Shown here: positions 36,663 through 36,716 of the stretch, in pieces
How positions within the stretch are numbered: the first letter of the stretch is position 1
Layout of the letters: each line of letters begins with the position of its first letter
Source: Bacillota bacterium
GTDB lineage: Bacteria > Bacillota > Negativicutes > JBAXTZ01
Direction: 5' to 3'
NCBI GenBank assembly: GCA_037129925.1
Contig: JBAXTZ010000004.1
Location: 21,444-85,443, forward strand
DNA length: 64,000 nucleotides
Translations under genes and position numbers: made by a program
Notes under the pieces: model-generated
Database searches by the model: none
What the model was told of the DNA's origin: nothing
Seen by the model: the letters and a program-made list of their open reading frames with translations, nothing else

Positions 36663-36716
36663 TGTCAGGATAACGTCAGGGTTCTGTCAGGGGTGTCCAG
36701 TATAATCAAGTCATAC
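36663..36716 (+). promoter_or_regulatory. Array of five phased direct heptamer repeats (TGTCAGG) followed immediately by a TATAAT -10 box
   Basis: tgtcagg at 36663, 36674 and 36695. cgtcagg at 36684. tgtccag at 36704. Spacing is 9-11 bp. tataat at 36711-36716. RBS AGGAGGG at 36740 and ATG at 36756. Confidence 0.55.

Follow-up and report, generated by a model that had tools for sequence, protein, structure and literature searches.

How is a gene transcribed whose promoter has a perfect -10 hexamer and no -35 hexamer, and what takes the place of the missing contact? This question is raised by an array of direct repeats in a stretch of 64,000 nucleotides from a Negativicutes bacterium (the whole of this stretch is hereafter called the window), where the array precedes the gene of a 283-residue helical protein followed by type I secretion genes. 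From comparison with other loci, we propose, with a probability of about 75%, that the array belongs to an activator-dependent sigma-A-type promoter used by a regulator with a Trans_reg_C domain (OmpR/PhoB-type winged helix) acting in trans.

Four phased repeats and a -10 hexamer

On the plus strand, the region reads cacTTT TGTCAGG atac TGTCAGG ataa CGTCAGG gttc TGTCAGG ggtgtccag TATAAT. The period of the four heptamers is exactly 11 bp, and 9 nt separate unit 4 from the -10 hexamer. The features are as follows; other loci are cited by L number, and positions relative to transcription refer to a predicted start.

36649..36651, plus strand: T-run directly 5' of unit 1 (cacTTTTGTCAGG), conserved across promoters
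36652..36658, plus strand: repeat unit 1, TGTCAGG, about -61 to -55, kept in L003, L007 and L009
36663..36669, plus strand: repeat unit 2, TGTCAGG, about -50 to -44, kept in L003, L007 and L009
36674..36680, plus strand: repeat unit 3, CGTCAGG, about -39 to -33, in the place of a -35 box
36685..36691, plus strand: repeat unit 4, TGTCAGG, promoter-proximal, about -28 to -22
36694..36700, plus strand: heptamer TGTCCAG, inside the 9-nt spacer
36701..36706, plus strand: -10 hexamer TATAAT, invariant in all seven aligned promoters
36713..36755, plus strand: predicted 5' untranslated region, its start at about 36713 estimated from the position of the -10 hexamer

Tandem Repeats Finder delimits the array to 36652-36691, with a period of 11 and 3.6 copies. 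The window has four exact copies of TGTCAGG, three of them inside this array. Pairs of the form TGTCAG-N5-TGTCAG with at most one mismatch occur three times in the window, always in the array, as against 0.29 on average and at most 2 in mononucleotide shuffles. When an 18-mer was searched with up to 3 mismatches, the window held 6 matches for 2.5 expected. A sigma-70 scan yielded no -35/-10 pair for the TATAAT at 36701-36706, which confirms the predicted lack of a -35 hexamer; the hexamer 17 bp upstream is AGGGTT, and there is no TGn extended -10.

The original prediction had described five repeats running into this -10 hexamer. The repeats and the hexamer are present, at coordinates about 10 bp lower than given there: the TATAAT placed at 36711 occupies 36701-36706, and a second TATAAT, considered as a rival start at 36632, occupies 36628-36633. 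The number of repeats has to be reduced to the four conserved units. The fifth heptamer, TGTCCAG, lies only 9 bp from unit 4, as compared to the 11-bp period, and fills the spacer before the -10 hexamer. It is conserved in no ortholog, the counterparts being GCCGCAAGT in L003, CTGGCAATA in L007, GTTGAGTTA in L009 and ACTACTCCA in L011. Because it lacks conservation even in the 91%-identical ortholog, its resemblance to the repeats is probably due to chance.

The intergenic region 36489-36755, in which the array is located, lies between two divergent gene groups and contains further elements.

35073-36488, minus strand: treB (phosphotransferase system trehalose EIIBC), with treC on the same strand
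36536..36564, minus strand: divergent treB-treC promoter, TTAACT-17-TATAAT, 10/12 consensus positions, conserved in L003
36628..36633, plus strand: upstream TATAAT, AATAAC in L003, no usable -35 box

The treB-treC promoter is separate from the repeat array. The upstream TATAAT is probably not a promoter, judging from its replacement in the closest ortholog, L003, and a start from it is thus disfavoured. The predicted leader of the operon carries AGGAGG at 36745-36750; its fold is unremarkable (z = -0.5) and no Rfam family matched in it.

Conservation and recurrence of the array

To follow the array in other lineages, contigs encoding homologs of the 283-residue protein were collected and the upstream regions aligned, giving seven sequences. 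Relative to the window, these loci compare as follows.

L003-L006, 91% protein identity: four units identical to the window
L007, 67% protein identity: TGTCAGC / TGTCAGA / TGCCAGA / TGTCAGG
L009, 65% protein identity: four perfect TGTCAG
L011, 57% protein identity: two units
L135, 53% protein identity: orphan paralog without transporter genes, beside a tRNA; two units
L136, 51% protein identity: orphan paralog; GGTAAG x2, same geometry

Hence, the array is present in four-unit or two-unit form in five further lineages (91-53% identity), including the unlinked orphan L135, as anticipated for a functional element in orthologous loci. TGTCAG cores, 9-nt gap and TATAAT are retained while flanks and spacers diverge. 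The gap between the last heptamer and TATAAT is exactly 9 nt in 7/7 aligned promoters, in each of which the repeats stand in for the -35 box at this fixed distance from the -10 hexamer. With four units at 11 bp, the window also shows what is expected of a Trans_reg_C promoter, namely two or more direct repeats one helical turn apart. Geometry and conservation therefore both support, as far as sequence can tell, the prediction that the promoter is of the activator type, with phased direct repeats in lieu of a -35 box.

The units themselves were compared position by position. Among 16 independent units, G2, C4, A5 and G6 never change, T1 and T3 each have one exception (15/16), and the spacers vary. 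The unit matrix also shows T at position -3 in 15/16 units, and TTTTGTCAG precedes the first unit in 6/6 promoters of the TGTCAG type; the unit consensus is T-W-N-TGTCAG-S-N. The core of unit 4 is identical in these 6/6 promoters; when the L136 variant is included, all seven aligned sequences still share its G, T, A and G. Unit 3, which reads CGTCAGG in the window, has TGTCAG as its counterpart in L009, L011 and L135, and TGCCAG in L007.

At L007 and L135, treB is absent and the array is still found upstream of the homolog of the 283-residue protein gene. Because it accompanies that gene where treB is missing, the array belongs to it, and control of treB by the array was rejected. Two further assignments were discarded. 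Plasmid-type iterons do not fit an array that in each lineage is tied to a -10 box and the start of a gene. The Spo0A box is the heptamer TGTCGAA; the units have AG, never GA, at positions 5-6, and G, C or A at position 7.

The L136 promoter (9975-10012) reads GGTAAGA attt GGTAAGT, then 9 nt and TATAAT: both half-sites are changed and the geometry is kept. On sequence grounds, the change suggests that regulator specificity has switched.

Across the window and about 220 kb of related DNA from Negativicutes, TGTCAG-N10-TATAAT is found solely at these promoters and at one shlB promoter (L220-222), which adjoins a SARP-type regulator gene. To look further, a complete metagenome scan was made for TGTCAG-N5-TGTCAG-N10-TATAAT, and a genome collection was scanned for three perfect units with no constraint on the -10 hexamer. 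The metagenome scan returned 81 loci in 36 clusters, several of the clusters being chance matches and one of the loci the L009 contig itself. By tblastn, 8/36 clusters have two-component genes within 3 kb, often at 40-180 bp, and a pass with profile hidden Markov models (HMMs) adds cases. The genome-collection scan gave at least 120 rows, and no Negativicutes appeared among the matches listed.

The genes that adjoin the arrays are informative. Pfam-confirmed Trans_reg_C genes beside TGTCAG arrays include OmpR-type response regulators on Firmicutes-like contigs and regulators with a receiver and a SARP-like domain. OmpR-type regulators adjoin a promoter of identical geometry in families X and Z and at L144, L175/177 and L192. 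In family X (16 loci), a 238-residue regulator gene ends 43 bp before a four-unit array; in family Z, the order is regulator, kinase, array, ABC (ATP-binding cassette) ATPase. The receiver-SARP type is found 22-180 bp from the array, or in the same operon, at L187, L147/148, L174 and L205. Among the genome-collection matches listed, AfsR-like SARPs (Trans_reg_C, BTAD and NB-ARC) adjoin arrays divergently from a P450 gene in Nocardia, Amycolatopsis and Prauserella, and in Prevotella and other Bacteroidales, proteins of about 250 residues with a C-terminal Trans_reg_C domain are encoded by genes that end 4-38 bp before the array. Judged by gene neighbourhood, the association of array and Trans_reg_C domain is seen across four domain architectures and at least three phyla. 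Of the two regulator classes originally proposed, winged-helix and LytTR, the former is sustained by these many unrelated loci, whereas the latter agrees neither with the 11-bp period nor with the neighbourhoods: among the matches listed, a single array (L125) has a LytTR gene within 3 kb, at a distance of 2.7 kb, and that array is itself adjoined by a Trans_reg_C gene.

Several of these loci have features of their own. Family X includes L141, L142, L170, L172, L179, L189, L197-L199, L206, L208, L212 and L215; its regulator combines a degenerate receiver domain with Trans_reg_C, the array advances in steps of 11, 10 and 11 bp before TATAAT, and a conserved leader with a small hairpin lies downstream of TATAAT. 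At L019, L040, L095 and L123 (also L059, L073, L110 and L126), three TGTCAG units and a GAnnGT-type -10 lie about 14 nt before a P450 gene; the genera among the matches listed are Nocardia, Amycolatopsis, Prauserella and Streptomyces, and these actinomycete P450 genes are probably leaderless. Where the flank is readable (L019, L040, L095, L123), the P450 gene is divergent from a large AfsR-like SARP gene. Other actinomycete arrays (L015, L069, L089, L093, L106) have three to four copies of (G)TGTCAG at 22 nt from a downstream ABC-transporter ATPase gene, and in several of them a large SARP-like gene is about 2.6 kb away. In Bacteroidales, TGTCAGnCAAATGTCAG arrays are found directly 3' of the Trans_reg_C gene of about 250 residues (L038, L070, L079, L088, L108, L114, L125, L134); the next gene at L038, L070, L125 and L134 encodes about 700 residues with an N-terminal signal sequence, possibly an outer-membrane receptor.

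Finally, four to five TGTCAG and a TATAAT are found at L153, L163, L165, L168, L178, L185, L201, L204, L211, L216 and L129, where the transcript would be about 45 nt long, with a strong terminator hairpin at its end. Where open reading frames were examined, phage-like genes lie downstream, terminase small subunit-like in L153 and L168 and HNH-like in L201. These loci resemble a late-promoter/antitermination layout on prophage-like contigs from anaerobic digesters. A viral scan gave two families only, one inside a phage structural gene and the other of low G+C content, with no regulator near either.

Which regulator may bind the array?

The window encodes no candidate. Profile HMMs for the receiver, OmpR C-terminal, SARP C-terminal and LytTR domains, run on its six frames, gave no match at E<=1, and recovered the expected genes of control loci; tblastn of the window agrees. 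The prediction that no cognate regulator is encoded nearby therefore holds, and since no regulator domain is found in the window, control would be in trans. At L011, the orthologous operon is flanked by two two-component systems. Upstream, divergent and at 400 bp, is an OmpR-type regulator (Response_reg and Trans_reg_C) with a HAMP-HisKA kinase. Downstream is a receiver-SARP regulator (RR2) with a 7TMR-DISM/LytS-type kinase (HK2).

We infer a trans-encoded Trans_reg_C regulator, most likely a phosphorylated response regulator, that in response to its signal would bind as two tandem dimers on one helix face and would activate rather than repress. With a start near 36713, the units would span about -61 to -18, placing unit 3 over the -35 position. 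The bound dimers may recruit or adapt RNA polymerase and so replace the absent -35 contact, in the manner of PhoB at pho boxes and of SARPs at afs-type boxes. Four units could confer a cooperative, switch-like response, and transcription would then proceed through the gene of the 283-residue protein, a hairpin and the HlyB/HlyD/HlyB-type secretion genes.

Several points weigh against this proposal. The assignment of the regulator rests on association in other organisms, because none is encoded in the window. In principle, a repressor could also use direct repeats placed over the -35 position. Orthologs of the L011 regulators in sister lineages (L218-L228) have no adjoining arrays, except the single-unit L220-222 site. 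In addition, several of the 36 scan clusters are plain chance matches or lie within coding sequence.

Among the candidates, the receiver-SARP response regulator with its 7TMR-DISM/LytS-type kinase is the one we tentatively put forward, and it would refine the proposal of a Trans_reg_C activator. Its small secreted-protein regulon would hold the type I substrate, the orphan paralogs and possibly two-partner secretion genes. RR2 and HK2 are directly beside the operon in L011, and RR2 falls in the 'two-component SAPR family', whose longer homologs have Trans_reg_C and BTAD. Orthologs of RR2, at 53-55% identity, were found in the L009 lineage (on the same 140-kb contig), in samples of the L003 lineage and in the L007 sample, always beside ShlB/TpsA genes. 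In L220-222, the shlB promoter directly 3' of the regulator gene is the TGTCAG-N10-TATAAT described above. Regulators of this type are near matching promoters at the four metagenome loci already cited, and true actinomycete SARPs adjoin TGTCAG arrays. However, the L220 site offers a single good unit and is missing from L228 and L218, the RR2/HK2 genes have no array upstream of them in any Negativicutes locus, OmpR-type regulators adjoin such arrays equally often, and the window contains no receiver-SARP gene.

The layout of SARP promoters also matches. In SARP targets, the repeat spacing is 11 or 22 bp and 8 bp lie between the 3' repeat and the -10, the afs box covering -40 to -19; these repeats overlap with the -35 box and act by a 'sigma adaptation' mechanism (PMC10936776). 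The array shares with the afs box of afsS and with ActII-ORF4 and DnrI targets the 11-bp direct repeats, the distance of about 8 bp to the -10 and the overlap with the -35 position. If transcription starts at 36713, the two 11-bp units nearest the -10 would cover -39 to -18, and the 9 nt that follow the heptamer correspond to 8 nt after an 8-bp contact unit. No SARP protein is encoded in the window; a receiver-SARP adjoins the L011 operon and is present in sister lineages. A receiver domain is lacking in the classical SARPs, which are from actinomycetes, whereas the present candidate fuses receiver and SARP domains and is paired with a kinase. To our knowledge, no characterised SARP has been described with the half-site TGTCAG. 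A literature search on TGTCAGG/TGTCAG and response regulators found no described regulator with this half-site besides PhoB-like sites.

Other genes were seen around the receiver-SARP pairs: ShlB beside the receiver-SARP and 7TMR-DISM kinase in L220-L222 and L228, an asparagine synthase instead in L218/L219, and, near the pair in L218/L219 and L228, a large exoprotein (about 3100 residues).

A classical OmpR-family response regulator other than PhoB, for example an ortholog of the L011 pair acting like NisR/SpaR on bacteriocin operons, is a doubtful but serious alternative. The L011 pair lies 400 bp upstream of the operon, its orthologs (60-62% identity) occur in the L003 and L009 lineages, and the L226 pair is beside a C39-ABC/LcnD-type exporter; OmpR-type regulators also adjoin the identical geometry in families X and Z and the three other loci given above. 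On the other hand, the promoter of the L011 pair itself has TTCACATC x3, which suggests a different specificity, no arrays lie near the orthologs, and the pair is unlinked to the operon in 4/5 lineages.

This promoter of the pair (L011:9858-10000, minus strand) consists of the three TTCACATC copies in 8- and 11-bp steps, 8 nt and TATAAT. It drives a small Cys-rich secreted peptide, the OmpR-type regulator and the kinase, and stands back to back with two TGTCAGG units: the same architecture with a different repeat.

It is unlikely that the units are pho boxes and that PhoB/PhoP activates the secretion operon on phosphate starvation. Pho regulons often include secreted proteins, PhoB promoters can carry two boxes, that is four units, and Firmicute PhoP boxes are TT(A/T/C)ACA, which argues against a PhoP site. 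The promoters of E. coli pstS and phoA resemble the array in the TGTCA core every 11 bp, the replaced -35 box and the fixed position relative to the -10, as in the phoA site (TGTCATAAAGTTGTCACG), and one E. coli PhoB site from chromatin immunoprecipitation reads TGTCAGGCCGCTGTCATC. E. coli PhoB sites are of the form TGTCAY-N5-TGTCAY, with strict spacing to the core promoter (PMC9934606). In contrast, position 6 is invariably G here and position 7 is G or C, rarely A, whereas E. coli, with its CTGTCAT-like units, has T or C at position 6 and A or C at position 7. Furthermore, 0/36 scan clusters precede a recognisable pst/pho gene, the adjoining regulators score below PhoB cut-offs, and annotation of the related loci, and of parts of the window, revealed no pho/pst genes. 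The array differs from PhoB promoters in position 6 of its half-site, in the missing link to phosphate genes, in its diderm Firmicute host and in having candidate regulators only.

We consider it highly improbable that the repeats are a repressor operator, or a non-functional product of slippage, ahead of a TATAAT that works unaided. The -10 box is indeed perfect, and chance clearly accounts for some scan clusters of this pattern. However, cores and exact spacing are conserved at 53-67% protein identity and at an unlinked paralog, which rules out neutral DNA; the promoter has neither a -35 box nor an extended -10; and the half-site is changed in both units of L136, as expected for a protein-binding site.

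Least probable of all, and very nearly dismissed, is binding by a LytTR-type regulator (AgrA/ComE/PlnC-like): such regulators often control bacteriocin or toxin export operons, kinases of the HK2 type (PF06580) usually pair with them, and their promoters (agr P2/P3, comCDE, pln) likewise have direct repeats upstream of a weak secretion or toxin promoter, but their sites are 9-bp direct repeats about 21 bp apart with a 12-13-bp spacer, read by a different DNA-binding fold, whereas here four contiguous 7-bp units lie 11 bp apart, the partner of HK2 in these genomes has a SARP-like rather than a LytTR domain, and the LytTR HMM found nothing in the window or the ortholog loci, with L125 as the one array locus, among the matches listed, that has such a gene within 3 kb.

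The secretion operon behind the promoter

The gene group downstream of the array is the export operon that had been predicted; the quorum-sensing part of that prediction finds no support, and a toxin or bacteriocin function would be speculative. Its features are as follows.

36756..37607, plus strand: first gene, 283-residue protein predicted to be all-helical, no family match
37626..37659, plus strand: hairpin with a 15-bp stem, in the gap between the first gene and the first ABC gene
37677..39791, plus strand: HlyB-like ABC exporter 1, ABC_membrane and ABC_tran; best NCBIfam match type_I_sec_HlyB, 593.6 bits, below the cut-off of 725
39772..41151, plus strand: HlyD-family type I secretion adaptor, TIGR01843, 319 bits against a cut-off of 208.65
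41152..43281, plus strand: HlyB-like ABC exporter 2, best match type_I_sec_HlyB, 634.5 bits, below cut-off, the match spanning the N-terminal region
43359..43721, plus strand: small SHOCT-domain protein, closing the conserved cluster; in L003, L007 and L009 likewise placed after the second ABC gene

An HlyB-type ABC exporter and an HlyD-family adaptor, the pair expected of a type I secretion operon, are thus both present, with only HlyD above its cut-off. The annotated parts of the window show no outer-membrane TolC-like gene, although no search aimed at it was made. From gene order only, the 283-residue protein is presumed to be the type I secretion substrate. It has no Pfam or NCBIfam match, and its AlphaFold2 model is helical with low confidence (pLDDT 54). 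Its homologs form seven clusters, all Negativicutes-like, the sole source name being 'Negativicutes bacterium'. Alignment defines a family of helical proteins of about 270-290 residues with an invariant C-terminal KKWFKW, which seems to be restricted to one Negativicutes group. Some family copies are orphans far from transporter genes.

The stretch of 86 nt that contains the hairpin has a minimum free energy of -25.4 kcal/mol (z = -3.0), and the hairpin alone, as centroid, -23.4. It is probably a partial terminator or a stabiliser, and likely sets the ratio of cargo to transporter expression. In NisR/SpaR lantibiotic operons, an activator-dependent promoter is followed by the structural gene, a hairpin and exporter genes. 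The operon described here has the same order, and differs in its diderm type I secretion genes, its 283-residue helical product and its unlinked regulator.

The remaining genes of the window are ordinary (aromatic amino-acid synthesis, a type I restriction system, transporters and others). At 26241-33399, a YhcG/DUF1016 nuclease-like gene lies between hsdS and hsdM in a group that also contains hsdR; its counterpart in L003 is a RhuM-family gene, so that the slot between hsdS and hsdM is variable. The gap between the DAHP synthase and prephenate dehydrogenase genes (21970-22138) holds a perfect 21-bp tandem duplication (ACTCCCCACTCAATACTTCTT x2), CTAATGG x3.6 and imperfect TTTCACT heptamers.

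A promoter of this kind is well known, its architecture being that of textbooks, and the understanding of such promoters is unchanged by it. Broader, and at this stage speculative, is the joint idea that TGTCAG arrays are the operators of uncharacterised receiver-SARP fusions driven by 7TMR-DISM/LytS-type kinases and, across phyla, a 'default' Trans_reg_C operator. If true, diderm Firmicutes would possess a secreted-protein regulon made of the KKWFKW protein and its type I system, the orphan paralogs and perhaps two-partner secretion toxins, and TGTCAG every 11 bp, 10 nt from the -10, would be common to PhoB, actinomycete SARPs and Bacteroidales regulators. The conserved cis-element (TWNTGTCAGS x4, 9 nt, TATAAT) provides a handle on an unannotated Negativicutes secretion system and its 283-residue cargo, for which the list of candidates is short, with two types of regulator nominated. 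The cross-phylum association of TGTCAG with Trans_reg_C may, in addition, help to predict the regulons of orphan winged-helix regulators.

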